Assembly: GCA_049999805.1 (NCBI GenBank)
Contig: JBNGIO010005973.1
Coordinates: 66,877 to 130,876 of the forward strand
Direction of reading: 5' to 3'
Length of the DNA: 64,000 nt
DNA from: Folioceros fuciformis
Lineage: Eukaryota
The first letter of the stretch is position 1. The number at the start of each line of letters is the position of its first letter. The position numbers were made by a program, and so were the translations under genes. A model generated the notes under the pieces. The model did not search any database. It was not told the origin of the DNA and was given only the letters and a program-made list of their open reading frames with translations. Positions 3,648 through 43,627 of the stretch are shown here, one piece after another.

Positions 3648-6403
3648 GCGATTGCTATGCTTGCATGTACTACCTCTTCCAAAGACCTTGCCGACCAAGT
3701 GCTTTCCACCAAACCGTAGAAATACTTAGTCTTGTAGCTGCAACCTGCAACCATTACCAACACTATGAAAGAACACGAACACTATGAAAGAACACGCAGG
3801 CCGAGCAATGGCTGGACGTTGGCCGGGCTGGTTTTCAGCCGTTTCAAGCAACTTCTGATATTGTTTGTGTGTTAGCTCCAGTTTTATGGCGGCTGCACTG
3901 GGAGACGCGTCTCATGATTCTGTGTGAACCAGGTACCCAAGAATCACAAACCGTCCTTCCCATGTTAGGAATCCGATGAAACAGGTCCAAACGACTCAAA
4001 CCGAGCCGCTCGCTCGGACGGTTTATGCCTTCGCTCGATGGACCAGGTTGTTGGAAGCCGTGGGTCTCCCCATCTGTAACACTCGTCGTAGAGATAGAAC
4101 GGACAAAGGTGACTGAGCACACACATGCTACCACCATCTCTTCCCGGGCATCGATCTGGCGTGCTACAGAAATCTGGACTGATTCCCATCGCGTCTCAAA
4201 GCATTCGCTGTGTTCGGTGTGGATCGTATGACTGTTAGATCTAGACCACTTCAAGACGTACAGTCTGTGTTCCATTTCTCAACGTCCCGTGCATCGTCTT
4301 CCTCCTTGACAGAATCAGAACGAACATCACCATCGATCAACATGACCTCCACGATCATCACTCTCCTTGCTCCCTGACATAGCCTGGATAACCACGTTCA
4401 GACCCTTCGTCCTTGGAACAAATCCAATTGCAACAACACCAACACACGAAGTCTGAGCAAACAAAGCTGTCACGAACTGGCATCTCAACTCGACCTCCCT
4501 TGCGCCTGACTTCCTTGAGGAGCGCCGCTTCCACCATTCTCAGACCTGGCGCCAATCTCGGTTTCTGTGCAACAAGCCCCCGACCACATTCCCGCTAACC
4601 AGAAGGTGCTCTTGGGGACAGATTCTTAAGATTTCGATTAGTTAAAGTTCCTAATTTCTAACCTGGATCATTCATTAATGACTTATAATTCAGAGCTGGA
4701 GAGAGTATGGATATGGTCGAGCCGGTATGTCCTATCTCTGGCCTCATCACTGCGTGTACAGAGAGAAATCCAATACATAATCACAAAAGTGCGATCATGA
4801 ATTAGCGGTAGAACGGTCAGTCCATTCCGTTAACCGGTTGCCGGAAGACGGGAAGCTCGTTGCGGGGAGTGGCGACTGCACCAGAACGACCGACGCTCAT
4901 GACGGGAACCGGTGGACACGTGTGCGTGGACGCAAGTGCGGGAAGAAGGTATTGCAACAATGATTGCCAGCGCCAGGAGTCGTGGAGTCGTAGCGTCGTC
5001 ACGTCCTGGCCTGACGGGGCCGGAGTCCCCGCCGGACCATGGTTGGACGACACTATGCACTGCGGTTTGAAATGCCCAGGAGTCCCAGGACGGAGAGAAA
5101 TACTTATGAGAGTGCGGATCAAGTGCGGGTGGAGTCCGTCATTGGTCATTGGCTGTCGCGCCAGTGCAGAGTACGTATGCTAGTGCATACATGTACAGTA
5201 GTCGATAATCCCAGCTGGTAACGGGTTCGCATTGCTGCATCCGGGGGCTTTGGATTCCAGGAGATCCGGAGGGGCCAAGTCCGTGTCTTCGACTAGGAGG
5301 AGCAAAAGGCTGGAGAGCGCGGACGAGCAGGTTCATGAACTGATGTGGGAATGGGAGAATCCCGGTGGGTCTGGGTCTGGGTCTGGGTCTAGGTCGGCGT
5401 TTGGTTGGTGGATTGGGGTCTGGGTACGTTCGCCACTTCTTGTTTTCGCACTCGTCTGGGCACGGGTGGCCGCTTTTGATGCTGCTGCGTCCAGGCGGTC
5501 TCTCTCTAGAAAGTGGGGATGAATGAATGTCTTGGTACTGTTTTGTATGTATGTACGAGGAGCAGGTGTGGCTGGACCCCGAGCACCTCCCCTGGCTCTC
5601 TCTCTACTCTTAAAGCCCGGTCGTGACAACCTCGGGGTCTGGACTGGATGTGACACAAAGAGTGCGCGCGTCCCTGCTGATCCTTCCAACGTGCCGGGGA
5701 GTCGTTGGCGCCAGGAGATGGGAGGGTGCGTCGTCGCCGTCTGAGAGCTGGGTGGATTAGGTGCATCTGCGGCTTGCCTGCATTGGGCGTCGCCTTTCTT
5801 GGCGCCTTTCTTGTTCTGCAGCCTCCCATTGTTGTGCGTTTGCGGCCAGATGCAGTTCTGTTCTGTTCTGTCGGGAGGGAGTGGGGTGTGATCGATCCGT
5901 TTGTCTTGTAAGGCGTTGTGGGCGGTAGCTTCGTGGGCGATAGCGTTTGCGGGCGGTAGGATTTGGTGGGTGATAATGTTTTGGGCAATAGGATTTGGTG
6001 GGTGATAAATGTTGTGGGCGATGGTTCTAGTGCCTGCTCTTGTGTTTGTGCCGGGTCGTGAGATTCATCGCATTGCTGATGGGTGGTTTGGGGCGTGCTT
6101 TTCTCGGTAGGGGAATTACTGCTGCTGGAAAGGTTTATGTAGGTTGGGTCTTGTTTCCTGTCGTGTTGCGTTCTGTCGTTGAGCCTGCTGTCTGCATTGC
6201 AACCTTCTGCTTGCCACTTGCAGCTGGCAGCTGGGAAACCAGCTGCTAGGAGGGATTCTGCTGCCAGTCTTGGGAACTGAAAGCTGTGTTACCTGCGTCT
6301 GTGCTTTGCAGTTGCACTGACGCGTCTGGAAGTGGTTTGCTTGGGCAGGTTGGGGGAGAAGCTGGTTCCAGAGAAGCACCGAGAGCGAAGGACTGAACCA
6401 AAG

Positions 6404-8886
6404 ATGGCTCCAGCAGTGGCCTTCCTCTCCGTGTGCCTCCTGCTGGCAGGCCTGGCATCCGCATTTGGAGATGCCGATGGTGCCAAGACGTACATCATCC
6501 ACATGGCCAAGGACCACAAGCCGTCCTTGTTTCTCACCCACGATCACTGGTACCTCAACACTCTGGCGTCCATCAAGGGCAACGTGCTGCGACAGCGCGA
6601 GGAGGCAGAGGAGCTGGAATCTGACCCCTTGGTCCACGTCTACGACACCGTGTTCCATGGCTTCGCAGCCAAGCTCACGGATGCCCAAGTCCAGCGGCTT
6701 CAGGAAGTCCACGGCTTCCTGGCCATGTTCCCGGACACGGTGAAGCAGCTGCACACAACCCACACCCCGGAATTCCTGCAGCTGAACGCGTCTTGGGGGC
6801 TGTGGCCGGAGGCAGACTACGGCGAGGATGTGATCATCGGAGTGCTGGACACTGGGATCTGGCCTGAGAGCCAGTCCTTCTCGGACCACAAGATGGGTCC
6901 GATCCCTGCTCGCTGGAAGGGCACCTGTGTGTCGGGCACCGACTTCGATGCCAGCATCTGCAACAGGAAACTCATCGGTGCCACTTACTACGTGCGAGGC
7001 TACGAGGCATCGAGGGGCCCTGTGAATGAGACCCTGGAGTACCGATCTCCCAGGGACAGCGAGGGTCATGGCACTCACACATCCTCGACTGCAGGTGGAA
7101 GGTATGTGTACAAGGCAAGCCTGCTGGGCTATGCTCCGGGAACTGCCAGGGGCATGGCTCCCAAGGCCAGGGTGGCCATGTACAAGGTGTGCTGGGAGAC
7201 TGGATGCTACGACTCCGATATCCTGGCTGCATTCGACCAGGCTGTGGAGGATGGGGTGGACATCATCTCTCTGTCTGTCGGCGGGGCAGTGGTGCCATAC
7301 TACCTGGACTCCATCGCCATCGGATCCTTCGGAGCTATCAAGAAGGGAGTTGTGGTGTCGTGCTCTGCAGGGAACAGTGGGCCGGGACCTCTGACTGTGG
7401 CCAACATCGCCCCCTGGGTTATCACAGTCGGAGCTAGCACTGTGGATCGTGATTTCCCTGCCTTGGCCAAGCTCGGGAATGGGGTGTCCTACAAGGGAGA
7501 ATCTCTTTCGAGTGGAGTGGCTCTGTCCAATGACGCAGAGTACGATCTGGTGTACTCTGGGGATGTTGGGTTTGGTTCGGGAAACTCGTATTCTGCCAGT
7601 CTCTGCATGGCAGGGACGCTGGACCCGGCGAAGGTGAAGGGGAAGGTGGTGTTCTGTGATCGTGGAACCAATGCCAGAGTTGAGAAGGGTTGGACCGTGA
7701 GCAATGCTGGTGGTGTAGGCTTGATTCTGGCAAACCAGGAGGTTGACGGTGAAGGTATTATCGCTGATGCTCACATCCTGCCTGCTGTTGCTCTGGGCCA
7801 CAATGCTGGTGCCCTTATCAAGAGCTACATCTCTTCCACCAAGAACCCCAAGGCCACTATCACCTCCGGTGGGACTGTGTTGGGATACTCCCCAGCCCCC
7901 GTGGTTGCATCCTTCTCTTCCCGAGGACCCAATTCCCTGACCCCTCAGATCTTGAAGCCTGATGTGACTGGGCCTGGAGTGAACATCCTTGCTGCGTGGA
8001 CTGGTGCTACAGGACCTACCGGAATCACTTCCGATCCCCGTCAGGTATGGCTCGCCCTCTTCACGCAAGCCGCTTCTTGCTGCATTGCCGTGCCGGCTCT
8101 CGCTTTTATCATGCCATCTGTTGTCCCCTTCCTGCAGTGCTGTTTTCTGATCATCTGAGGCGGTGTCCTGTGTTGCAGGTGAAGTTCAACATCATCTCTG
8201 GGACATCGATGTCATGCCCGCACATCAGTGGCCTGGCTGCCCTGATCAAAGCTGCGCATCCTGACTGGACCCCATCTGCCATCAAGTCTGCCCTCATGAC
8301 CACAGCACATGTGACCGACAACCGCAACTCTCTCATCACCGACGAGGCAACCGGAGAAGCTTCAGACCCCTTCGGCTATGGTGCCGGCCACGTGGACCCT
8401 CAGAAGGCTCTGAACCCAGGTCTGGTGTATGATCTGGAAGAGGAAGACTACGTCCACTTCCTGTGCGCCCTGAACTACTCTGCCAGGTCCCTGCAGATCG
8501 TGACACAGGACCCCACTGTGTCTTGCCCAGACACAGTCCTCACCTTGGCAGACTTCAACTACCCTTCCTTCTCGGCAGTCTTCGATGAGAGCACCACCAA
8601 AGTCCTGGAAACCAAGTTTCACAGGACGGTCACCAATGTGGGCACGGCTTCATCCACCTACGTGGTCACCACCAAGGCACCGGGAGACATCAAGCTCACA
8701 GTCAACCCCGAGAAACTCGTCTTTACCGAACTCAACGAGAAGCAGAGCTTCACGGTCACAGTTGCAGCTGAATACGAGGACCTTTCCCCGGGTCAGTCGG
8801 ACACGGTGTTCGCACACATCTCCTGGACTGACGGCACCCATGTCGTCCGTAGCCCAGTTGGGATTACCAGGCAAGAACATTTCTGA
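6404..8886 (+). CDS. Subtilisin-like serine protease (SBT1-type subtilase), 2 exons: 6404-8044, 8179-8886
   Basis: Signal peptide, I9 prodomain (TYIIHM...LHTTHTPEFL), catalytic motifs VLDTG, HGTHTSST and SGTSMSCPH, PA domain and C-terminal Fn3-like domain. A GT-AG intron at 8045-8178 joins the two ORFs in frame. Confidence 0.95.
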
Positions 8887-10753: not shown

Positions 10754-12238
10754 ATGGCTGTGGACGCTGCGACCCTGTCCCGTATAGGGCTGGCTGGGCT
10801 GGCCGTGATGGGGCAGAATCTGGCCCTGAATATCGCGGAGAAAGGGTTCCCGATATCTGTGTACAACCGTAGCAGCAGCAAGGTGGATGAGACTGTGGAG
10901 CGGGCGAAGCAGGAGGGAAACCTGCCTCTCCGGGGTTACTACACTCCCAAGGATTTCGTGCTGTCCATTCAAAAGCCTCGGTCTGTGATCATTCTGGTGA
11001 AGGCTGGAGCTCCGGTGGACCAGACGATCGAGACTCTGTCCGAGTTCTTGGAGCCCGGGGACTGCATTGTGGATGGTGGGAATGAGTGGTACGAGAACAC
11101 GGAACGGCGGGCCAAGCAGGTGGCAGAGAAGGGGCTGCTGTACCTGGGGATGGGGGTGTCTGGAGGTGAGGAGGGAGCCCGGAATGGCCCGTCTCTGATG
11201 CCTGGAGGCACTCCTGAGGCTTATCATTACATCGAGGATATTGTGAAGAAGGTGGCTGCCCAGGTTGACGACGGCCCGTGTGTGACATACGTTGGGAAGG
11301 GAGGATCTGGGAATTTTGTGAAGATGGTGCACAATGGGATTGAGTATGGGGACATGCAGCTCATCTCGGAAGCTTATGATGTGCTGAAGTCTGTCGGAGG
11401 GTTGACCAACGCGGAGCTGCACTCGGCCTTCAGCGAGTGGAATAAGGGAGAGTTGGAGAGTTTTTTGGTGGAGATTACTGCGGATATCTTTTCCGTGAAG
11501 GATGATAAGGGAGATGGGGAGCTGGTGGATAAGATTCTTGACAAGACGGGTATGAAGGGGACCGGGAAGTGGACTGTGCAGCAGGCTGCCGAGTTGTCCA
11601 TCGCTGCCCCGACCATTGCTGCCTCCCTGGATTCTCGGTTTCTGAGCGGGTTGAAGGAGGAGAGGGAGGCTGCCGCTGCGATCTTCAAGGAGGTTGGTGT
11701 TGGTGATATTCTGGGTTCCAAGAATGTGGACAAGACGCAGCTGGTCGACGATGTGAGGAAGGCCCTGTACGCCTCCAAGATCTGCAGCTATGCCCAAGGC
11801 ATGAACCTGATTCGTGCCAAGAGCATTGAGCAAGGGTGGGACCTGAACTTGGGCGAGCTAGCTCGTATCTGGAAGGGTGGTTGCATCATCCGTGCCATCT
11901 TCCTCGACAGGATCAAGCAGGCCTACGACCGCAACGCCAAGCTGGCATCCCTTCTGGTGGACCCTGAGTTCGCGAAGGAGATGGTGGACAGACAGGCCGC
12001 ATGGAGACGAGTGGTGAGCTTGGCCATCAGCGTTGGTGTGAGCACTCCAGGTATGAGCGCCAGTCTTGCCTACTTCGACACGTACCGCAGGGCACGGCTC
12101 CCTGCCAACCTCGTGCAGGCCCAGCGAGATTACTTCGGTGCCCACACCTATGAGCGGGTTGATGCCGAAGGTGCGTTCCACACAGAGTGGTTCAAGATTG
12201 CCAAAGGAGCCAAAGTCCCCACCGGTGCCCGTGTATAA
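10754..12238 (+). CDS. PGD: 6-phosphogluconate dehydrogenase (decarboxylating), intronless CDS
   Basis: GLAVMGQNLALN Rossmann motif, VKMVHNGIEYGDMQLI, MKGTGKWT, QAQRDYFGAHTYER. Confidence 0.97.
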   Translation: MAVDAATLSRIGLAGLAVMGQNLALNIAEKGFPISVYNRSSSKVDETVERAKQEGNLPLRGYYTPKDFVLSIQKPRSVIILVKAGAPVDQTIETLSEFLEPGDCIVDGGNEWYENTERRAKQVAEKGLLYLGMGVSGGEEGARNGPSLMPGGTPEAYHYIEDIVKKVAAQVDDGPCVTYVGKGGSGNFVKMVHNGIEYGDMQLISEAYDVLKSVGGLTNAELHSAFSEWNKGELESFLVEITADIFSVKDDKGDGELVDKILDKTGMKGTGKWTVQQAAELSIAAPTIAASLDSRFLSGLKEEREAAAAIFKEVGVGDILGSKNVDKTQLVDDVRKALYASKICSYAQGMNLIRAKSIEQGWDLNLGELARIWKGGCIIRAIFLDRIKQAYDRNAKLASLLVDPEFAKEMVDRQAAWRRVVSLAISVGVSTPGMSASLAYFDTYRRARLPANLVQAQRDYFGAHTYERVDAEGAFHTEWFKIAKGAKVPTGARV

Positions 12239-23019: not shown

Positions 23020-24381
23020 TCAGTCTCTGGTGGCTTTCCGACTTGTCGTCGCGGTTTCCCTGACCACTCCTGCGGACACCAGAAACTCATCCAGGGTGGA
23101 AAGCGTCCTCATGTCGGCCTCCGGAAACACGACTCGCACTCTCCTAAACAGGTTGAGGATTTGAAGCCAGAAAGGTTCCTCCTTCTCCGGCCGGTGGGTG
23201 ACAAGATCATCCAGAAATGCGAACGCCGCCAGCAAATCGTTCCCGTTGGCAGTAATAGGGGCTGCAAAATGCGCTGGGATAATGCGCTTGAATTTCCAGT
23301 CCTCCACAATGGCGTCCACCCAATCGCGCACCGCATCTGGCGCCTTGTCGAACACCAGCGTCTTGACGATCGGAGACACGATGAGGCGCTTCGAGATCTG
23401 CGAGAACGTGCCTCTGGGCTCCAGCAGATTCGCAGGCCCTAGGAACAATATCTGCAGCACCATCCTCTCCCACCCCCGCTGCCGAGTTCTCGCATTGTCC
23501 ACCAGCGGCTCGTCGGGGATCTCCCGCCCCTGGCTCAGCAGCCGCACGGCCAGGTTGTTCTTGGCCGCGTCCAGCAGCGACTTCCGGCTCACCACCTCGG
23601 GGGGCTCCTTGGGGACCAGGATCACCGCATCCGTCACCAGCAGCGTCTGGCTCCTCCGGTGAAAGAAGGCCACCTCCACGTACGGCCCGATGCCCACGGG
23701 CGAACTCAGAACCTTGAACTCCAGCTCCCCCGCCCACGGCATCTCCGGGTCCCCCTCCTGCAGCTCCCGCGCCCCGAAGATGCCCAGAAACTCCAGCGGG
23801 AGGTCGAGCGGCCAGCTCCACAGCCGCGGAGCCACCCACACCTCCGCCTGCGGGAACTTCCGGGAGAAGGGCCCCACGAAGATCTTGTGCTCGTACGCGA
23901 AGGTGGGCAGCACGATGAAGCCCACCGGCGCCCCGAGCTCCTTCACCAGCCGCACGCACTCCGCCGTGGGCGCGATGGGCGCGTGCACCCACAGCTCCCC
24001 GGATTGCAGCTTGATCACTGTCATCCGCGTGTTGGTGCTCACGCTGGTGAATCCCAGCGCCTGCTGCTGCTCGAACGTCCACACCCGCCCCCGCTCCACC
24101 TCCTTCCGGATCGTCCTCCGCGTCAGGAACGGCCCCAGCGGAAACGGGAACCCCGTGATGTTCACATACCACCTGCCGCCTCCTCCCGCCTCCTCCTCTG
24201 GCTGCGACGCCGCCCTCCACACCTGCCTCCCCCTGCTGCGCCATGTCCGTCCAGGGCCATCCGCTGCAACGTAGCAGGAGGAGCAGCTGCATTCCCCATT
24301 CCCCGCCCCGCGCAAGCTGGCCCGACGCAGAGACGTGGACAAGGCGTGGTGAGGCGCCCACGCCGTTGCCATCGCAGCCAT
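23020..24381 (-). CDS. DUF4336-family chloroplast-targeted protein, intronless
   Basis: Transit peptide; FPFPLGPF..RRTIR, RMTVIKL..GELWVHAPIAPT, EHKIFVGPFSRKFP, IIPAHFAAP. Confidence 0.85.
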   Translation of the reverse strand: MAAMATAWAPHHALSTSLRRASLRGAGNGECSCSSCYVAADGPGRTWRSRGRQVWRAASQPEEEAGGGGRWYVNITGFPFPLGPFLTRRTIRKEVERGRVWTFEQQQALGFTSVSTNTRMTVIKLQSGELWVHAPIAPTAECVRLVKELGAPVGFIVLPTFAYEHKIFVGPFSRKFPQAEVWVAPRLWSWPLDLPLEFLGIFGARELQEGDPEMPWAGELEFKVLSSPVGIGPYVEVAFFHRRSQTLLVTDAVILVPKEPPEVVSRKSLLDAAKNNLAVRLLSQGREIPDEPLVDNARTRQRGWERMVLQILFLGPANLLEPRGTFSQISKRLIVSPIVKTLVFDKAPDAVRDWVDAIVEDWKFKRIIPAHFAAPITANGNDLLAAFAFLDDLVTHRPEKEEPFWLQILNLFRRVRVVFPEADMRTLSTLDEFLVSAGVVRETATTSRKATRD

Positions 24382-24694
24382 CCCCGCTTGCGACAGGAGC
24401 CAACAAAGCCTCGTCGACTGGCTCCTCGTGTCGTGAGGTCTTTCTTCCTCACAAACTCGACCCACAATTCGTCCATAGCTGACCCACCCCATGATTGATC
24501 CAACCGATCACCTTCCCTTACCGCGCTTGCTCAGTTGGCTGAGCACCGGGTTAATACTTCCGAGGTCTAAGGGTCGAACCTCCCTACGGCACCTCCAATT
24601 CCCGTCCACCCTGCTCTGTACAGCAGATTATGATCCCGTGAGGGGTTTGGGTGGCCGACGAGGTCCCTCTCCCTCTCTCAGCATACTCTTCTCT

Positions 24695-25456
24695 TTACTC
24701 GTCTTCGTCCATGACTTGCTTCACCACCTTCACCTCCGGAATGTAGTGCATCAGCATATTCTCAATGCCCGACTTGAGGGTGACGCCCGAGCTGGGGCAG
24801 CCGCTGCAGGCGCCCTGCATCCTGAGGGTGACAGTCCCAGTGGCCGGGTCGAAGCCGCGGTACTCGATGTCCCCGCCGTCGTCGCGAATTGCCGGGCGGA
24901 TCCTTGTCTCCAGCAGCTCCTTTATCATGGCCACGGTTTCGGAGTCGGTGTCGAGGACGGTCGTGTCCGAGAGCCTCAGAGGCTGGGCGTTTGTGAAGAG
25001 GGGAAGCCCGCCGGTGTAGAACTCCATGATGACCGCGAAGATTTCCGGCTTCAGGATCTCCCAGGACTGCTCCTCGGACTTGGTGACCGTGACGAAGTCG
25101 GAGCCGAAGAAGACCCGAGTGATGCCCTCCACCCCGAAGAGGGCCTTGGCAAGAGGGGAAGCCATGGCGGAGCGGGCGTTTGGGAAGTCCGCGCTGCCAG
25201 TTTCCATCACAGGCTTGCCCGGGTAGAACATGAGGGAGGAAGGGTTCGGCGTGCTCTGCGTCTGGATGAAGATGCTCCTTCGCTGTTGCACTCCATGCTG
25301 GAAGGGTGGAGAAGATGGCCGGATGACGGGTTCGGCGACTGGCGGCAGGCCTCGTCGTCCTGCTACCTGCCACAGATCCCTGATATGATGCACAGGCATT
25401 GGCCTCCTTGGGCTCTTGGCGAGCAAGTGTCTCAGGCACCTCGAGGATGTGGCCAT
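24695..25456 (-). CDS. NFU4: Mitochondrial NifU-like Fe-S carrier (NFU4/5-like), intronless; alternative ATG at 25465
   Basis: Presequence, [60 protein letters not shown]. Confidence 0.93.
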
Positions 25457-25531
25457 AGCTCGCATTTTAGGTCTTGTCCTTCTCCTTCGTCCAGGTGTGA
25501 AGCTGGGTACAACTTTTCCTAGAAATAACTA

Positions 25532-26499: not shown

Positions 26500-27513
26500 T
26501 CACAGCAACTGCTTCTCCTTCTTGGCCTTGAATCCCTCCACGCGCTGCCCTAACCACTCCTGAATGTCGTTCACAATGACAGCCACGTTCTCATCCGGCT
26601 CGCCTTGAAGCAGGCTATGGAGCATCCCTTCGTACACTTTCAGCGTCTTGTCCTTGCTCCCAGCGGCGGCGTACAGAGCCTTGCTCACAGCGGGATCCGT
26701 TACCACATCCGCGTCTCCATGGATCACCAGCATTGGCAAGCTCACATCCTGGAGCCTGGATCCCAGATAGTCCGTCACTCTGAGCAGCTCCGCCACCGTC
26801 CCGAGCCTCGGCTTCCCCGCGTACCTCCTGGGATTGCACTTGGCCAGCAGCTTCTTTCTGGGGTCCTTCACGGACTTGTCCACCAGATCTGCCGTGGGCA
26901 CCACGGCCCAGGTGGGCGCGAACTGCGCGATGGCCTTCAGCACTGCTGCGATAGGCCATGCCGGCTTCACGTTGTCCGAAATCTTGCACATGGCAGCCAC
27001 CAGAATCGCGCCATCCCAGCCATCAGGCTCCGCGAAGTGCACCAGCAAACAAATAGCTCCTCCTAGAGACTCCCCGTACAGGAAGGCTGGGAGGTGGCGG
27101 AACTCCTCCTTCTCACGCACGGTACGGAAGAATTCGGAGCAATCGGACGCTACGGCGTCCAGGTCCGGGGTGAATGCCCGCATTCCGTCGGATTTCCCGT
27201 GCCCCTCCAGATCCAGAGCTGCTGCCGCGTACCCCATTTTCGCAAACATCATCGCCGTGTTCTGGAACGTCCAGCTGGTGTCGTTCCCGTACCCGTGCAC
27301 CATGCACACCAGAGCTTCCGGCTCGGACTCTAGCGGAATCCATAGCTGCGTGAAGAGCCTGCTTCCGCGGGCATTCGTGAAGAGATTCCTGCTGTTGCGT
27401 ACTCCCTGCTGCCTGTAATGTTCCTCCTCCGGTGTGTCTCCCCACGGGAAGGGCGGGGGCTGGAAGACGTCGCCTGGCTGCTGTTGGCTTTTCTTTTCCC
27501 CTGCACCCGCCAT
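26500..27513 (-). CDS. Alpha/beta hydrolase, monoacylglycerol lipase (MAGL)/caffeoyl-shikimate-esterase family, intronless
   Basis: HGYGND, LEGHGKSDG, nucleophile GESLGG, HGDADVVTDP, YEGMLHSL. Probable ATG 27513; the ORF extends to 27645. Confidence 0.9.
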   Translation of the reverse strand: MAGAGEKKSQQQPGDVFQPPPFPWGDTPEEEHYRQQGVRNSRNLFTNARGSRLFTQLWIPLESEPEALVCMVHGYGNDTSWTFQNTAMMFAKMGYAAAALDLEGHGKSDGMRAFTPDLDAVASDCSEFFRTVREKEEFRHLPAFLYGESLGGAICLLVHFAEPDGWDGAILVAAMCKISDNVKPAWPIAAVLKAIAQFAPTWAVVPTADLVDKSVKDPRKKLLAKCNPRRYAGKPRLGTVAELLRVTDYLGSRLQDVSLPMLVIHGDADVVTDPAVSKALYAAAGSKDKTLKVYEGMLHSLLQGEPDENVAVIVNDIQEWLGQRVEGFKAKKEKQLL

Positions 27514-27724
27514 AGCCTGGGCTGCGTGCGCGCGCTTGCAGCTCACCAAGACATGGACTCCGCTAATCCTGGATGCCAGGACGCCTGCAAGCCCCAGCCC
27601 CGACCAATGCGATGCTGCGATAGCTTGCATCGCCCAGCTTACCATAAAGGCGTGGCACGAAACCTAACATGCATTCGGCCAAATTGGTAGCCGTGAGCTC
27701 AAATTTGGGCGAGAGGGAAGGCAG

Positions 27725-30731: not shown

Positions 30732-32033
30732 ATGTCGGGTGAAAAGGGAGGATTGTCGAGAAAGAGGTTGGCGACTCGGCAGCTCAGAAGAGAGGATTCA
30801 TCCGAAGATTCGGATGTGGAAGATGGACCAACGCAGGCTACTTTTCGCAGAGCAAGCGATGAAGTGTTAGCCACCCGAAGGATTATCAAACTGTGTCGTA
30901 AGGGGACAGCTTTTCCAGGGGCAAATCCCTTCCGCGCTGCACGCTTGGTGGCACCTGCCTCGTCCCAGGAGGCGGAAATTCTGCCTCTAAGCTCCGACAG
31001 CAGCAAGGATGGAGCGGAAGGATGGAGCAGTCAGGGGGCCCGGATTTTGGGTAGCAGCTCGTCTGAGATGTCAGATGCTAAGAGTCGGCCGCGGGTGGTT
31101 GCTGAAGCCGAGAGGAGTTCTGGGAGTGTGGGCCCTGTTAGAGCAGCACTCAAATCCGACAGTGTAGGGAACGGGCAGGACGCGTCCAAGCCAGAGAGTG
31201 CCATTTCCGAGGGATCAGTGGATGGGATTCAGGGTGAGACAAAACAGTCACCGGTTGCAGAGAAGAACGGGGAAGATGCAGACCCTCAGGCCCTACCTCC
31301 TCGCCGGGTTAATTCTGGCCACAGCGCATCTGGCGTCGGCGGGACCTGTGATTTCATTACGCCCAACACTCCACTTTGCGGGTTTGCGTCCTTCAGCTCC
31401 TCTGTTCGGCCAGCATTTTCTTCGACGAACAATATGTTTGGGATATCGGGTGCAGGAGCTCTGCCGGGCTTTGACACGCCGTCTTTTGAACCTGTGTTTG
31501 GAAGACTCCGGCAGTCCAGCTTCGAGTCTGCTACTGGATTGTCATCCTCTGCACCAACTGACACCAATGGCCCAAGCATTGTCTCTCTTCAGGTAATACA
31601 TGTAGAAACAGGAGAAGAGAAGGAGGCAACCGTCTTCACAGCCGATGCAACGTTGTTCGAATACATCAACAACGCGTGGAAGGAACGGGGCAGAGGTGAA
31701 GTCAAGTTGAATGTTTCCCAAGAAAAAGCCTGTAAGCCAAGACTTGTCATGCGCTCCAAGGGAAATCTGCGTCTCCTGCTCAATGCAAGCCTATTTCCGG
31801 ACATGAAGGTGTCCAAAATGGACAACCGAGGCGTCAGCTTTGCATGTGCCAACAGTGCAGCTGAAAGCAAAACAGGACTTGCTATGTATGGATTGAGGCT
31901 TAAAGATGCCTCGGTGGCTCTGGAGTTCTTGGCCCTAGTTGATTCTCATAAGGGAGACTGCCTGGTGGAAAACACGGATTCTGAGAGTCCTAGAGAAAGT
32001 AGAGACGAAACAACAGAAACACGGGCACAGTGA
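30732..32033 (+). CDS. NUP50: Nucleoporin NUP50-like with C-terminal RanBP1 domain, intronless
   Basis: N-terminal KRLATRQL...TFRRASDEVLATRRIIK; C-terminal VETGEEKE...WKERGRGEVKLN...RLVMRSKGNLRLLLNASLFPDM. Confidence 0.88.
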   Translation: MSGEKGGLSRKRLATRQLRREDSSEDSDVEDGPTQATFRRASDEVLATRRIIKLCRKGTAFPGANPFRAARLVAPASSQEAEILPLSSDSSKDGAEGWSSQGARILGSSSSEMSDAKSRPRVVAEAERSSGSVGPVRAALKSDSVGNGQDASKPESAISEGSVDGIQGETKQSPVAEKNGEDADPQALPPRRVNSGHSASGVGGTCDFITPNTPLCGFASFSSSVRPAFSSTNNMFGISGAGALPGFDTPSFEPVFGRLRQSSFESATGLSSSAPTDTNGPSIVSLQVIHVETGEEKEATVFTADATLFEYINNAWKERGRGEVKLNVSQEKACKPRLVMRSKGNLRLLLNASLFPDMKVSKMDNRGVSFACANSAAESKTGLAMYGLRLKDASVALEFLALVDSHKGDCLVENTDSESPRESRDETTETRAQ

Positions 32034-38009: not shown

Positions 38010-38469
38010 CTTCAGCGATGTGCTGAGGATGCAGCCCTGATTCCGTCCATCAATTCAAACCGATGCCTCATGCCCCCCTGCCACCGCACTTCGAGGGGCA
38101 CTACAGTCCATGCTTCCCCTTCATGGCCCTAATAAGCAGCTTCCCGATAGAGAGCACACACAATTTAAACGCGTACCATGTTTTTCAATTCTATGTATGC
38201 CTGGAGAACTGGATTTGGGTCATGGCACTTGGTACTTAACAACTAGAGAATTGGATTTACATCATGGATTTCCGTCATAGGACTTTGGTACGTAACAACT
38301 AGAGAACTGGATTTCTGTCATGGGACAACTTGTACCATGGTTGGTACCTTTACGCCGTCGATTTCTGGTCGTGCGCAGATGGATGAGGTCTACGGGCATT
38401 GGATGTGGGTGTGAAGGATCGATTCCGAAATGACTGTCAGAGCTCGCAGCAGTAGGCGATGTGTGTACG

Positions 38470-38960
38470 ACGGGCAAGATGAACGGTGATGGATGTCCAG
38501 CCTGACAATGCTTTCGAACTCCCGCATTACCTTCTCTGTATCCTTGTGATCTTTACAGGCAATTCAGCCAAGCTGCCCACAGCATAACTTTGGCCCGGCC
38601 CTCACATTATATGAACATGACTGTTCTCGGCCACATTCATGATATCCAGCACGTCTAAGAAGACGAATTATGCAAATTCCAAAGACCTCCTCAGTAGTGG
38701 TACCATGCTGCCATCGAATGAAGGTGCTTGCGATCCTCATCCACCATGGATCCCCTATGCTTCTAGAGGGCAAAGGAAAATGAGCATCATTAGCGTCAGT
38801 ACTGGCAACTAAGATCTGCTCAAAACAGGCTGGTGGTGCCCTGTGGTCGTCATCACAAGTACCATAGCCAGGTATCATGACATTGCACGTAACCACATCG
38901 TTTGTGGCCATGCAAATCTTGCCACCTTGCACAGGCCGCAGAAGGCAAGAAAAAGTTGTT
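38470..38960 (-). pseudogene. Decayed PLS-PPR/E-domain fragment, paralogous to the adjacent PPR-DYW gene
   Basis: Frameshifted remnants TNDVVTCNVMIPGYGTCDDDHRA, VDEDRKHLHSMA and ACKDHKDTEKVMREFESIVRLD match P2/L2/E1 of 39055-41775. Confidence 0.75.
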
Positions 38961-39054
38961 AAACATGGTCGGCCAGAGGTAGCCCAATTTATCCTACACA
39001 ACAGCTACAGTTATGTCCAAGCCCTCGCTGAGCACTTCTATTTCTTGCTCCTTC

Positions 39055-41775
39055 TCATGGTCGACCCTTGCAAGTGCAAGAACCATCGGCAAACCGATGC
39101 ACACGGTAACCGTCCCTTACAACAATGTCTCTCTGTTCCAGCCTTGACATGATCTCCGTTGAACTGTGGCAATCACTGCACATTCGTAGATTCTTCGTTA
39201 CCACCAAAGGTGTCCCACTTGGAGTGTTCAAGAGACCATAGGCTAGGGCTAGTTTCTCAGCATGTCCACACAGCGCGTCTTCCTTTTCCTTCTCACTCAG
39301 TGGCTTCAACACCAAATTTGTGTGAGGTATGTGGCCTCCTTCATGCTTCACACGTGCATTTATGCTCTCTACCTTTAGCGCAATATCATGTTCTGTTCTT
39401 TCCCCCACCACAAACGTATGAACCTGCTGTTTCACCTCAATGGTCGCCACTGCAGGTTTCTTGTTAGCTCCTGCTACCAGCCTCTGTGTTTCAATCCTGT
39501 CTACATCCGTCCACCTACCTGCATCTGCATAAGTATTGGCCATAAGCACGTAAGCAGACGCCCGCTGGGGGTCCAGCCTAACGATGCTTTTGAAACACCA
39601 CAGCGCCCTATCTACATCCCCATGACTTTTGCAGGCATTCAACAAAGATGTCAAGCCCACAAGATTACTTTGACTCTCACATGATAACAGCATGGTCTCA
39701 GCCTCATCTAAATTGCCTACACGCCCAAGAAGATCAACCATACAATTGTAATGGTCAGTAGTAGGTTTTAGGCCATGCTGTTTCGCCATGGAATCGAAGT
39801 ACTTGCAACCCTCATCCACCAGTCCCTCATGACTGCATGCTACTAGAACGCAAGTAAAAGTCGCATCACTAGGCTGAACACCGGCAACTAACATCTCCTC
39901 AAAACAAGCTAGTGCCTTGTGACCTTCATCACAGGCACCGTACCCAGATATCAGGGCAGTCCACGTCACCACATCCTTTGTGGTCAAGCTGTCAAAAACC
40001 CCGCGTGCATCCTCCAGTTTGCCACATTTTGCATACATGTCCACCAGGCAAGAGCCCAACACCACGCAATCCAGCAGTCCACTTTTTACAATCTGTGAGT
40101 GCAGCTGCCTGCCTTTCTGTAAGGCACCAGTGCTTCCACAGTACTTCAGCAGGCAAGCAAACACAAACTCGTCAGCCAAAATGAGGCCCTCCTCCTCCAT
40201 TTGTCCATACAAAACAAGTGCCTCGTGTCCGAGCCCTTGCTGCGCATACCCAGCAATAAGCGCTGTCCATGTCACCACATTTTTTGTGGCCAGGCTGTGA
40301 AAAACCTGGCGCGCATCTTCCATTTCACCACATTTTGCGTACATGTCCACCAGGCAGGTGCCTACCAGTATGTCATTCAGCAGCCCTCTTTCAACAATGA
40401 GTGAGTGCAGCTGTCTGCCCCTCTGTAGGGCACCAGTGCCGGCACACGCCTTCAGAAGGCAAGCGAAAGTGACATGGTTAGCCAAAATGTGGCCCTCCTG
40501 CTCCATTCGCTCATACAGAACAAGTGCCTCCTGTCCAAGGCCCTGCTGGGCATATGCAGCTATGAGGGTAGTCCATGAGACCACATCCTTCGTGCTCATG
40601 CTATCAAAAAGATGGCGTGCCTCTTTCAGTTCACCACATTTTGCATAACCAGATATCAAGGCATTCCATGTCACAACATCCTTCGCAGGCATGTTGTCAA
40701 AAACGTGGCGTGCATCTTTCAGTTCGCCACATTTTGCATACATATCCACCAGGCAGTTGCCAACAAACAGGTTAGTAGGAATGCCACTGCGCAACACATC
40801 ACGGTGCACTTTTCTGCCAGATTCCAAGTCAGCGCCAAATGCACAAGCTTGAAGGGCAGCCACAAAGGCGTGACCATTCGCCTTCACTCCTGACCTACGC
40901 ATCTCATGGTACAATTGTATTGCCTCATCATGTTGCCCATGCTTGGCATACGCAGAGATGATGGAACCCCACGTGATAACATCTGGTTTGCCTACCCTGG
41001 TGAACACATCCATGGCCTCCTGTAGCCTACCTCCACCTGCATACATGCGCAGGAGATGGTTCCCCAAGTATGCATTCGATTCGTACCCAAATTTAACACA
41101 CAGATCATGGACGCGTCGTCCCACAACCAAATCCTTCCTAGCTGTACACAGTTTCAGCACAGAGCCAAACAGAGAGACCGAAATAGCAGAGTCTATGTGC
41201 GCCAGAGATTCAAGGGCTCCAACGGCCTCAGAAAGCTTCCCCTGCTGGCACAACGTGCTCACGGTCACAGCCGTAACCACGTCCACATCCGACGTTCCAC
41301 GCCTCCCAGGTTCAGGCTTACCCGGAGCGCTGGGCTGGGAAGGAGAGGCTCCATGTCCCATCTGCGTATCCAAGGAAACGATCTTCTCATCAACCCAAGC
41401 TGGCTTAAAAGTGTGGTTCAGCCACAGCACCTCCCCGGACCCCTTACGCCGGAAGTCAGGAGAACGGGAGCTCTTCTTATCTCGTCTGTTGTCCCACCAC
41501 AGGGTAGGATCCAGAAAAAACTGTTGCCACAAGTGCTCCTGGTCCTGGCAACGACCGGCGTCGCTGGACAATCCGTCCCCACTCACAAACGTTCTCGGAA
41601 GTGGAAGTGGAAGAGGAGGTGCTGGCCTCCTTACGCTGCAGCACCTGGAGGCTCTGTACGCCAGTGCTTGACTCCCTAAGATGAGGTGAGCGGGAGCTCC
41701 TGGTGGGATTCCTGTACCAACACCAACTGAAACTTGCTGGGTCATCAGCGGCTCCCCCAGCCATACTGTGGCCAT
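39055..41775 (-). CDS. PLS-class PPR protein with E1/E2 and a DYW:KP (GRP-ending) deaminase-like domain; candidate organellar U-to-C RNA editing factor with an N-terminal PDF motif; intronless
   Basis: About 16 P/L/S motifs; KKPAVATIEV in place of the PG box; HAEKLA and CSDCH zinc ligands; C-terminus CTCKGRP. Confidence 0.93.
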   Translation of the reverse strand: MATVWLGEPLMTQQVSVGVGTGIPPGAPAHLILGSQALAYRASRCCSVRRPAPPLPLPLPRTFVSGDGLSSDAGRCQDQEHLWQQFFLDPTLWWDNRRDKKSSRSPDFRRKGSGEVLWLNHTFKPAWVDEKIVSLDTQMGHGASPSQPSAPGKPEPGRRGTSDVDVVTAVTVSTLCQQGKLSEAVGALESLAHIDSAISVSLFGSVLKLCTARKDLVVGRRVHDLCVKFGYESNAYLGNHLLRMYAGGGRLQEAMDVFTRVGKPDVITWGSIISAYAKHGQHDEAIQLYHEMRRSGVKANGHAFVAALQACAFGADLESGRKVHRDVLRSGIPTNLFVGNCLVDMYAKCGELKDARHVFDNMPAKDVVTWNALISGYAKCGELKEARHLFDSMSTKDVVSWTTLIAAYAQQGLGQEALVLYERMEQEGHILANHVTFACLLKACAGTGALQRGRQLHSLIVERGLLNDILVGTCLVDMYAKCGEMEDARQVFHSLATKNVVTWTALIAGYAQQGLGHEALVLYGQMEEEGLILADEFVFACLLKYCGSTGALQKGRQLHSQIVKSGLLDCVVLGSCLVDMYAKCGKLEDARGVFDSLTTKDVVTWTALISGYGACDEGHKALACFEEMLVAGVQPSDATFTCVLVACSHEGLVDEGCKYFDSMAKQHGLKPTTDHYNCMVDLLGRVGNLDEAETMLLSCESQSNLVGLTSLLNACKSHGDVDRALWCFKSIVRLDPQRASAYVLMANTYADAGRWTDVDRIETQRLVAGANKKPAVATIEVKQQVHTFVVGERTEHDIALKVESINARVKHEGGHIPHTNLVLKPLSEKEKEDALCGHAEKLALAYGLLNTPSGTPLVVTKNLRMCSDCHSSTEIMSRLEQRDIVVRDGYRVHRFADGSCTCKGRP

Positions 41776-42170
41776 CGTTCAGCAACCGCTGCCGGAAGAT
41801 AGCTCCAGCAACACACTCTTTAGACGCCCAATTCAGGTACTTGAATAAGACTCTTTGCATACCAGAAAAGGACTCGACACAACTCGATAGCTTATTTGGT
41901 GGTTTAAAGTTGTCTCGATATGAACGTCACCAGGCAAGAGATCTGCGAGCGACGGCTAAATCAGAGACGCTTTTTGAAGTCGGCACGAGAGCGGGGAGAA
42001 GCGCACGGTGCGAGTAATTTGGCTGTGTTTTGGTTAACTGTGGTGTGATTTGTGTCAGTATCCAGCTTGCAACGACGTCGGGCTTCATGGCGGGGGATCC
42101 TCGAACTGACTGCCTTAGACCGTTCACGGGCGTTGGTCCGATTGAACCACCAACGAAGGTGTACGTATTC

Positions 42171-42280
42171 GGCCCTCGGGCCAATGGTATTACGACAAAC
42201 TCGTCATCCAAATGCTTTGGCCCTCGGGCCAATGGTATTACGACAAACTCGACATCCAAATGCTTTGTCCCTCGTGCCAA
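42171..42280. repeat. 48-bp tandem repeat, 2 full copies plus a partial copy
   Basis: GGCCCTCGGGCCAATGGTATTACGACAAACTCG... at 42171 and 42219, partial at 42267. Confidence 0.85.
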
Positions 42281-42477
42281 CGCTCCCAAGACGAACGCGT
42301 CATCCAAACGCAGGGCACGACGGAACGTTGAAGGCGCGGCACGAGTAAAGACCACGGTTCCTTCACAAGGTTCGCTGGCCCGGGTGGAGGCGGTGTTGCA
42401 ACCTCAGTCTTGATTCTGTGTTTCACTCAGCTCCTCCGGGGTTGCCCTGGATCAGTTCTCCACTCCTCCCGACTCCA

Positions 42478-43627
42478 GTTCTCAGCGAAGCCGGGCTTCT
42501 TTGTCGTGAGCAGGTGGTGAAGGCGCCAACAGGTCACAAGAACTTGCCGCGTCCTCTGGTTGAGAGCTTCGGCGTTTCGGCTATGTGCATACAGGTTGTC
42601 CGCGGAGGTCTCGTCTTTGTTGACTGCCTGGTGATATACAAAGTCTATCCCCTGTCACCGGGATAGTTAGACGTTCTCCTCTTGATTTTATGCTGTTGTA
42701 CATAGCCTATCCTGTGCGACAGTCGTCCTTCATTTCAAACCCGGCTTCTCTTCTGCCGGATCCAGGTTAAGGAAACAGTTCAATTCACTACGTAACCTTC
42801 TTGCATGAAGTCGAATTCCGACGTTCAACGCTGTTGCACATCCTACAGGAGGCACACAAGCGTCCCAGGATCAGATGCTTTAATTCGACTTGCATCACTC
42901 TCTGTAAACGTGAAGCTGCAGGGCCGCCTGTCCTAAGTATGTCCTGCTGTGACTGTCGACCTATCGTGGCATTCCACCTCAGTTCTCATGGAAGCAGGGC
43001 TTTATCCTTATGAGCAGATGGTGAAGACACCGACAGGTCACAAGACCTTGCCGCGTCTTCTGGTTGAGAGCTTCGGCGTTTCGGCTATGTGCATACACAC
43101 ACGTTGTCCGCGGAGATCTTGTCTTGTCTTGTTGATTCCATGGTAATGTACATGGTCTATTCCGTGCCACCGGGATATGTACATAGGTCTGTTCTCCTCT
43201 TGATTTTATACTGTTGTACATAGCCTATCCCGTGTGATTGTCGAACTTCATTTCAAACCTGGCTTCTGNNNNNNNNNNGGCCCAGATTAAGGAAACAGGT
43301 CAATTCACTACGTAACCTTCTTGCATGAAGTCGAATTCCGACGTTCAACGCTGTCGCGCTTGCACATCCTATGGGAGGCACACAAGTGTCCCAGAATCAG
43401 GTGCAACCATGCTTGAATTCGACTTGCATCATCACTCTCTGTGCATGTAAAGCTGCAGGGCCGCCTGTCCTATGCCCTGCTCTGAATGTCCTCCTAAGGC
43501 CCGCCTGTCCTATATCCTGCTGTGAATGTCGTCCTATCATGGCATTCCACCTCACAACATTCTTCAGAGCCAGGGCGTCAAACACACGTTCAGCGTCCTC
43601 GAGGCTGCCACGCTTAAGGCTTGGCAT
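42478..43627 (-). pseudogene. ~500-bp tandem duplication with a degenerate PPR remnant
   Basis: 42480-42980 is duplicated at ~42985-43550. The minus-strand remnant KRGSLEDAERVFDALALKNVVRWNAMIGRHSQQDIGQ is an S1-P1 PPR junction. Confidence 0.7.

Follow-up and report, generated by a model that had tools for sequence, protein, structure and literature searches.

A GRP-type DYW:KP pentatricopeptide repeat gene with an N-terminal OSB-type PDF motif: a candidate factor for uridine-to-cytidine RNA editing

In RNA editing factors of the PLS-DYW type, a tract of pentatricopeptide repeat (PPR) motifs contacts the transcript, one nucleotide being contacted per motif. Among the forms of the DYW domain that such proteins carry, the DYW:KP form is found not only in hornworts but also in lycophytes and ferns (PMC9478123, PMC13386178), and it has two hornwort subgroups, GRP and DRH, that are distinct from the tracheophyte KP clades (PMC9478123). 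The hornwort GRP subgroup (Gerke et al. 2020, as cited in PMC9478123) has a K-P-A-x-A box, an HAE active site, no H-P stretch, a Met before the first zinc-binding Cys, a Glu four residues after CxxCH, a Gly in place of the Asp of DYW, and a GRP end, and it forms a clade of its own. The subject of this paper is a gene that shares all of these properties, located at 39055–41775 on the minus strand of a 64,000-nucleotide stretch of Folioceros fuciformis DNA (contig JBNGIO010005973.1, positions 66,877 to 130,876; called the window below, with all positions counted along it). A preliminary description made from the letters of the window had tied KP-type domains with a GRP end to lineages that have uridine-to-cytidine (U-to-C) editing and to engineered versions that perform it, and this connection is borne out in PMC9478123. 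In particular, U-to-C editing in E. coli reached about 26% with KP2 and 22% with KP3, two designer proteins based on GRP sequences, and no cytidine-to-uridine (C-to-U) editing was detected (PMC9478123). Those two are designed proteins, whereas the one considered here (P0001) is a natural protein, known here from its sequence alone.

The gene is read here as a nuclear, intronless gene of the PLS-class PPR-DYW:KP (GRP) kind, most likely encoding a site-specific organellar factor that would convert U to C at one or a few uridines; a probability of roughly three in four is attached to this reading. The coding sequence is a single uninterrupted open reading frame of 906 codons, running from ATG to TGA, and its product has the make-up of a PLS-class editing factor, namely a tract of P, L and S motifs ending in P2-L2-S2, an E motif, and a DYW deaminase domain with HxE...CxxCH and CxC. 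Pfam finds PPR with an expectation value (E) of 2.1e-81 (PPR_2, PPR_1 and PPR_3 also match), E_motif (PF20431) on residues 718–780 with E 1.8e-13 and 50.9 bits against a cut-off of 27.3, and DYW_deaminase (PF14432) on residues 814–904 with E 2.4e-32 and 111.1 bits against a cut-off of 24, so that the pattern of domains and motifs is far beyond chance. The preliminary description had placed a DYW:KP domain with a GRP end at 39055–39462, and this span turns out to be exactly the last 135 residues of the protein together with its stop codon. The landmarks it had named are likewise where it put them: KKPAVATIEV in the place of the PG box (residues 772–781, window 39433–39462), the active-site string HAEKLA (residues 838–843, window 39247–39264), an intact CxDCH in the form of CSDCH (residues 866–870, window 39166–39180), and GRP rather than DYW at the end (residues 904–906 plus stop, window 39055–39066). 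Its broader statement, that this is an intact natural U-to-C factor, holds as regards the open frame, the place within the KP and GRP clades and the catalytic residues, while the U-to-C activity itself is what membership of this class would lead one to expect. The parts of the protein, with motif boundaries set by our own segmentation by residue number and not by a PPRfinder run, are as follows.

39055..41775, minus strand: complete intronless coding sequence of a PLS-class PPR-E1-E2-DYW:KP protein, 906 residues plus TGA (single open reading frame, with Pfam PPR, E_motif and DYW_deaminase)
41548..41775, minus strand: N-terminal 76 residues, presequence-like in composition (rich in Arg, Ser, Ala and Pro, poor in acidic residues)
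41368..41547, minus strand: one copy of an OSB-type PDF motif, residues 77–136 (profile of five stretches)
39664..41280, minus strand: PPR tract of 16 motifs, residues 166–704 (residue segmentation, Pfam PPR families, 306-nucleotide periodicity)
39463..39663, minus strand: E1, residues 705–738, and E2, residues 739–771 (segmentation; Pfam PF20431 on residues 718–780)
39058..39462, minus strand: DYW:KP domain of GRP subtype, residues 772–906 (Pfam, alignment columns, trees, fold model)

The residues that carry the assignment of the C-terminal domain were compared column by column in an alignment of 131 DYW domains, the rows of which include 5 of GRP, 16 of DRH and 30 of PG type, and they are as follows.

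39445..39459, minus strand: K-P-A-x-A box, residues 773–777, in the place of the PG box (alignment columns)
39256..39264, minus strand: H838-A839-E840, of which the His binds zinc and the Glu is catalytic; the Ala replaces the Ser of DYW:PG (by OTP86 H892/E894)
39193..39195, minus strand: K861, the active-site lysine, within K-N-L-R-M-C (alignment columns; spacing to the zinc-binding His)
39166..39180, minus strand: C866-x-x-C869-H870, zinc-binding motif (invariant in 131 of 131 rows)
39070..39099, minus strand: H893 ... C900-x-C902, conserved C-terminal residues (alignment columns)
39058..39066, minus strand: G904-R905-P906, the terminus in the place of D-Y-W (sequence and alignment columns)

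H893, C900 and C902 are residues that we take to be ligands of the second zinc site; the DYW motif is described as partly coordinating Zn2. Seven positions (H838, E840, K861, C866, C869, H870 and H893) are invariant across all 131 rows, while C900 and C902 are present in every GRP row (5/5), in every DRH row (16/16) and in nearly all the others. At the box, P-A-x-A is found in all five GRP rows, and in the DRH rows the P and the first A are each kept in 13 of 16 and the second A in 15 of 16, whereas the PG rows read P-G-x-S (G in 30/30, S in 28/30). The H-P stretch is a gap in 5/5 GRP and 16/16 DRH rows, as against H in 27 and P in 23 of the 30 PG rows, and the residue before the first zinc-binding Cys (M865 here) is Met throughout both hornwort subgroups (5/5 and 16/16) but Val in 21 of 30 PG rows. 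Two further positions separate GRP from DRH as well as from PG: that of E874 is Glu in three of the five GRP rows but Lys in 16/16 DRH and 26/30 PG rows, while that of G904 is Gly in 5/5 GRP rows but Asp in 15/16 DRH and 24/30 PG rows. The DRH subgroup thus shares with P0001 the KP box, the HAE, the H-P deletion and the Met, but differs from it in the Lys after CxxCH and the Asp of the terminal triplet, where P0001 has Glu and Gly. The KP and GRP differences seen in these columns match those given in PMC9478123, and the domain is accordingly assigned by its residues to the GRP subgroup of DYW:KP, every testable defining feature of which is present.

The roles given above to the zinc-binding His and the catalytic Glu derive from H892 and E894 of OTP86 (PMC7611903). 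Counted from H838, K861 lies at +23 and C866 at +28, and the spacing of K915 and C920 from H892 in OTP86 is alike (PMC7611903); because of this match with the spacing of H892 and K915, K861 is equated with Lys88 of the designer protein KP6, of which it would thus be the equivalent.

The same assignment is reached from the relatives of the domain and from their phylogeny. Searching with residues 740–906 found 71 proteins among 768 candidates, the best of them at 72% identity, and HAEKLA is present in 32 of the 71. The four best matches (P0002–P0005) end in GRP and most of the next (P0006–P0022) in DRH, the nearest 31 being all of GRP, DRH or related HAEKLA types, whereas named relatives begin only at 43% identity or below and comprise HSEKLA/DYW proteins of angiosperms, gymnosperms and Selaginella together with one fern KP-type protein (P0036). 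When 1.84 billion representative sequences were scanned by HMMER with residues 742–906, 2,668 matched at E ≤ 1e-3, among them 175 at E ≤ 1e-30, and the best 150 of the 2,668 were taken. Neither P0001 itself nor anything above 74% identity in the domain is present in the protein collections searched; its best identities to relatives are 72–74% in the domain and 55% over the full length. The latter figure is that of P0002, which is collinear with P0001 from the PDF motif to the GRP end (497 identities in 904 positions) and whose PPR tract is longer by about 70 residues.

For the trees, 220 DYW domains were cut from 218 proteins, ten were dropped (second domains, domains shorter than 125 residues, or those without CxxCH or HxE[KR]xA), and the remaining 210 were labelled by their box, active site and end. 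A quick tree (IQ-TREE, with supports from the Shimodaira–Hasegawa-like approximate likelihood ratio test, SH-aLRT) was calculated for 131 rows, namely all 101 that are not PG and a random 30 of the 109 that are. In it P0001 falls within a GRP clade of 5 rows (SH-aLRT 98) and a GRP plus DRH set of 23 rows (96), and a branch with a support of 99 separates a KP side of 62 rows from a PG side of 69; the fern KP-type protein lies in a different KP subclade from P0001. Because the row labels derive from columns that are themselves inside the alignment, the tree was repeated without the diagnostic columns, 13 of which were removed (the box, the middle residue of HxE, the Met, the Glu and the last four residues). 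This more careful tree has 60 rows, made up of 5 GRP, 16 DRH, 12 of 23 other HAE, 6 of 10 HCE, 8 of 41 other HSE and 13 of 30 PG, and its supports are given as ultrafast bootstrap/SH-aLRT values, to be read with the fact that the bootstrap correlation reached 0.986 and is not fully settled. The GRP clade with P0001, for which only five GRP rows were available, has a support of 99/94 and occurs in 98% of 200 bootstrap trees; the GRP plus DRH clade of 19 rows has 97/90, and the KP clade of 40 rows, which stands apart from DYW:PG, has 99/99. The phylogenetic check against PG and KP references proposed at the outset therefore places the domain in the KP clade and, within it, in the GRP subclade.

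As regards the fold, an AlphaFold2 model of residues 742–906, built from a 55-row alignment, has a predicted local distance difference test score (pLDDT) of 93.0 and a predicted template modelling score (pTM) of 0.85, and it confidently predicts a deaminase fold with a gating-domain insertion. Its best Foldseek match in the PDB is 9kfx_A, a synthetic PPR-DYW protein with its target RNA (E 4.7e-19, TM-score for the query, TMq, of 0.87), followed by the DYW domain of OTP86 (7o4e/7o4f, E about 1e-10; 7o4e_B, E 1.0e-10) and DYW1 (7w86, E 1.5e-9). These three are the only solved structures among the sequence relatives, and all are of PG type by sequence or name. What P0001 has in common with the canonical DYW:PG C-to-U factors (OTP86, DYW1, PpPPR56; PDB 7o4e/7o4f, 7w86, 9kfx) is thus the PLS-E1-E2-DYW layout, the fold (TMq 0.62–0.87 for the predicted model), the zinc-binding residues and catalytic Glu, and the active-site lysine. 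It differs from them in that none of the PG box, the HSE, the H-P stretch, the Val before the first zinc-binding Cys and the DYW end is kept, in that it lies on the opposite side of a 99/99 branch, and in that the reverse reaction is presumed for it.

From these comparisons we infer the reaction direction, the target sequence and the chemistry of P0001 in the following form. The protein would be imported into a plastid or mitochondrion, organelle targeting being suggested by the presequence-like N-terminus (there is one acidic residue in the first 60, and the 76 N-terminal residues cannot be aligned with the closest relative, P0002, the alignment beginning at residue 79). Its 16 PPR motifs, in the order P?-L1-S1-P1-L1-S1-SS-P1-L1-S1-P1-L1-S1-P2-L2-S2, would lie on the RNA immediately 5' to the target base, each motif taking one nucleotide. 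From the residues at the fifth and last places of the P and S motifs, the string 5'-U n n U U A n A G n G R n Y is predicted for positions -17 to -4. The readings of the pairs SD, TS and NN used in deriving this string are our own assumption. The Y of the string would lie at -4, under motif S2, and positions -3 to -1 would be covered by E1, E2 and the N-terminal portion of the DYW:KP domain. In the published register S2 stands at -4 and E1 at -3 (PMC9478123), and the code pairs TN and SN for A, TD for G, ND for U and NS for C are those of PMC12733224. The target base at position 0 would then enter the zinc-containing, deaminase-like site formed by H838, E840, C866 and C869, where K861 would attack C4 of the uridine to give a Schiff-base intermediate and from it cytidine; this last step is the published model for designer KP proteins, in which a lysine forms a Schiff-base RNA-protein intermediate after attack on uridine C4 (PMC11332814). 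Consistent with such a role, the conserved lysine has been reported as essential for U-to-C editing, its loss turning designers into C-to-U editors (PMC11845758).

The DNA of the PPR tract has a periodicity of 306 nucleotides with copies 73–78% identical, which points to duplicated PLS triplets. Inside the gene, at 39899–40755, there are direct repeats of 300 and 152 nucleotides with a spacing of 306 nucleotides and 73–78% identity, indicating that the triplets concerned were duplicated recently.

Taken as a whole, the reading of P0001 as a candidate U-to-C factor is supported at sequence level, but there are several points that weigh against it. No activity test of any natural DYW:KP protein turned up in the literature searched, only consensus designers having been assayed, and P0001 departs from its four GRP relatives at T778, an inserted T794, S853, G889, Y890, T901 and K903. 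In human cells the designer KP6 also edits C to U, and single substitutions can flip its direction (PMC11845758), so that the direction of the reaction cannot be read from sequence class. The U-to-C signal seen in bacteria is accompanied by RNA-protein crosslinks, and KP6 in vitro gave no U-to-C editing, only C-to-U (PMC11332814).

Much of this could be turned into an argument that P0001 is an active editor, but one that works C-to-U or in both directions in spite of its KP and GRP features. All the residues on which hydrolytic deamination depends, zinc ligands and catalytic Glu alike, are present in P0001, and KP6, bidirectional as it is in human cells, needs only a few substitutions or the loss of its lysine to become fully a C-to-U editor (PMC11845758). 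However, K861 is retained in P0001, its domain groups with GRP and DRH and far from PG, and for the GRP-based KP2 and KP3 U-to-C but no C-to-U editing was reported from E. coli (PMC9478123); a C-to-U or bidirectional enzyme is thus considered rather unlikely.

A different kind of doubt concerns whether the gene does anything at all, since it might be a recent duplicate that has no target and is either decaying or reduced to a non-catalytic RNA binder. The PPR families of hornworts are of great size, their turnover proceeding by dispersed duplication (PMC13386178), degenerate PPR fragments flank the gene on both sides, and P0001 carries several substitutions that its GRP relatives do not share. 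Moreover, a listing of sequencing runs returned 20 rows with part of the gene, none with half its words or more, and no RNA run is recorded among them. In contrast, the 906 codons are open and every catalytic and zinc-binding position is kept, the private substitutions falling at none of them; the terminal branch leading to P0001 (0.20–0.25) falls within the lengths found for its relatives (0.15–0.27); and the collinear P0002, at 55% identity and with the same PDF motif and GRP end, argues that the whole architecture has been conserved over the long term. An idle or decaying duplicate is accordingly judged distinctly improbable. The remaining alternatives can be dismissed briefly, in that a pseudogene is ruled out by the intact frame and catalytic residues, a further coding exon upstream in the same frame by the in-frame stop two codons 5' of the ATG, and a DYW:PG identity, or clustering with canonical DYW:PG domains, by the trees.

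One part of the gene calls for separate comment, because the PDF-PPR-DYW:KP layout, which it shares with its closest relative P0002, is its sole unexpected element. The landmarks of the motif are WWDNR at residues 93–97 and PDF at residues 106–108, and the pattern W-W-D-N-R ... P-D-F is found in only three of the 218 DYW proteins (P0001, P0002 and P0206), which sets P0001 apart from the GRP subgroup at large; otherwise its differences from that subgroup are limited to a K-G-R-P end, where four of the five GRP rows have G-G-R-P, and the few private substitutions already listed. No Pfam family matched residues 1–180 at E up to 10, a Protein Atlas search with residues 72–140 gave no usable match, and only two shorter proteins were found by a word search with a single sequence of the N-terminal motif, so that a profile search was necessary. 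The profile used for this (A1) was built from five such stretches; it scores 104.6 bits on residues 77–136 of P0001 in hmmsearch, and it found 367 proteins at E ≤ 1e-3 among 1,409 candidates. Named matches are the single-stranded-DNA-binding proteins OSB1, OSB2 and OSB3 (E 1e-20 to 1e-77) together with lycophyte PPR proteins, eight of these being from Diphasiastrum and one from Selaginella. Among 336 collected proteins it matches 126, of which 12 are PPR-like with one to three N-terminal copies, and of those 12 only P0001 and P0002 are of KP type. The 60-residue motif of P0001 matches the PDF motifs of OSB proteins at 38–60% identity in the profile search, but P0001 is without the OB-fold part, and its one copy stands N-terminally in a PPR protein, whereas in OSB proteins the motif is at the C-terminus.

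The OSB PDF motif comprises about 50 residues and is sufficient for binding of single-stranded DNA in AtOSB1 (PMC6963530). In P0001 the motif probably provides a second point of contact for single-stranded nucleic acid. It is possible, although somewhat doubtful, that it is a working module through which GRP reverse editors are tethered to single-stranded nucleic acid (the organelle nucleoid or the nascent RNA, as examples, may be what they are tethered to), coupling U-to-C editing to transcription or DNA metabolism, or else one that extends RNA recognition beyond the PPR tract. If this were so, its conservation in P0002 and the separate lycophyte fusions with one to three copies would amount to a recurrent, selected recruitment of an organellar single-stranded-DNA-binding motif by PPR proteins. 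A 2026 survey of the OSB family leaves PPR proteins unmentioned, and a literature search, with Gerke et al. 2020 and Gutmann et al. 2020 outside its scope, found no description of PDF-PPR fusions, which may be regarded as slightly enlarging the known set of accessory domains in editing factors.

In other respects P0001 is a further member of the known hornwort GRP DYW:KP family, and as such it will not surprise a specialist. Hornwort genomes contain between 1,583 and 2,308 PPR genes each (PMC13386178), and one DYW:KP gene of this kind in a hornwort genome is to be expected, because there are hundreds of them in each; conversely, the published taxonomic range of the GRP type would by itself suggest a hornwort source for the gene. 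A lycophyte or fern carrying a GRP-like DYW:KP gene, for which the wider range of DYW:KP and the lycophyte PDF-PPR fusions could be adduced, is very improbable as the source, given that GRP and DRH are the hornwort subgroups, that P0036 falls in another KP subclade and that the 31 nearest relatives are of GRP, DRH or related HAEKLA types. The wider interest lies in the reaction, since in the literature searched U-to-C is the one pyrimidine transition that has no biochemically characterised natural enzyme, all activity data coming from consensus designers, and there is still debate on its chemistry, the source of the amine and the lysine crosslink included. An intact natural GRP gene with a readable PPR code is therefore a usable test object, both for target prediction with an organelle editome and for comparison with the designers.

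Around the gene, a tblastn search of the window with P0001 found no other PPR gene, only two degenerate fragments, both on the minus strand. The first (38477–38965) begins 90 nucleotides downstream of the stop codon and aligns at 30% identity to residues 570–741 (S1-P2-L2-S2-E1), with a stop at 38564–38566 and without E2 or DYW; it is probably the relic of a partial duplication. The second (43280–43615), about 1.5 kilobases upstream of the start codon, comprises some 110 residues of S-P-L-like sequence, again at 30% identity, and is carried by an open reading frame of 76 residues at 43397–43627. Between this and the gene, about 400 nucleotides upstream of the start codon, three tandem units of 48 nucleotides are found at 42168–42311, the other two being 96% and 75% identical to the first.

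Four sequencing runs were mapped at 88% likeness, giving between 2,914 and 38,165 records per run, a signal swamped by PPR paralogues. Pieces with zero differences came only from two of these four runs, X1 and X3, which share an organism code. For X1 they cover 38300–39156, 40451–40647, 41512–41798 and 41771–42200, and for X3, the status of which as an RNA run is a guess, 38300–39149 and 40451–40646, so that these pieces do not bear on expression.

Elsewhere in the window there are long open reading frames at 6332–8886, 10754–12238 and 30732–32033 on the plus strand and at 23020–24492, 24695–25465 and 26500–27645 on the minus strand. By eye these resemble a subtilase, 6-phosphogluconate dehydrogenase, a NifU-like protein and an alpha/beta hydrolase, and are presumably ordinary nuclear genes. 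The window as a whole includes 140 N, and its content of guanine plus cytosine varies between 40% and 59% along its length.

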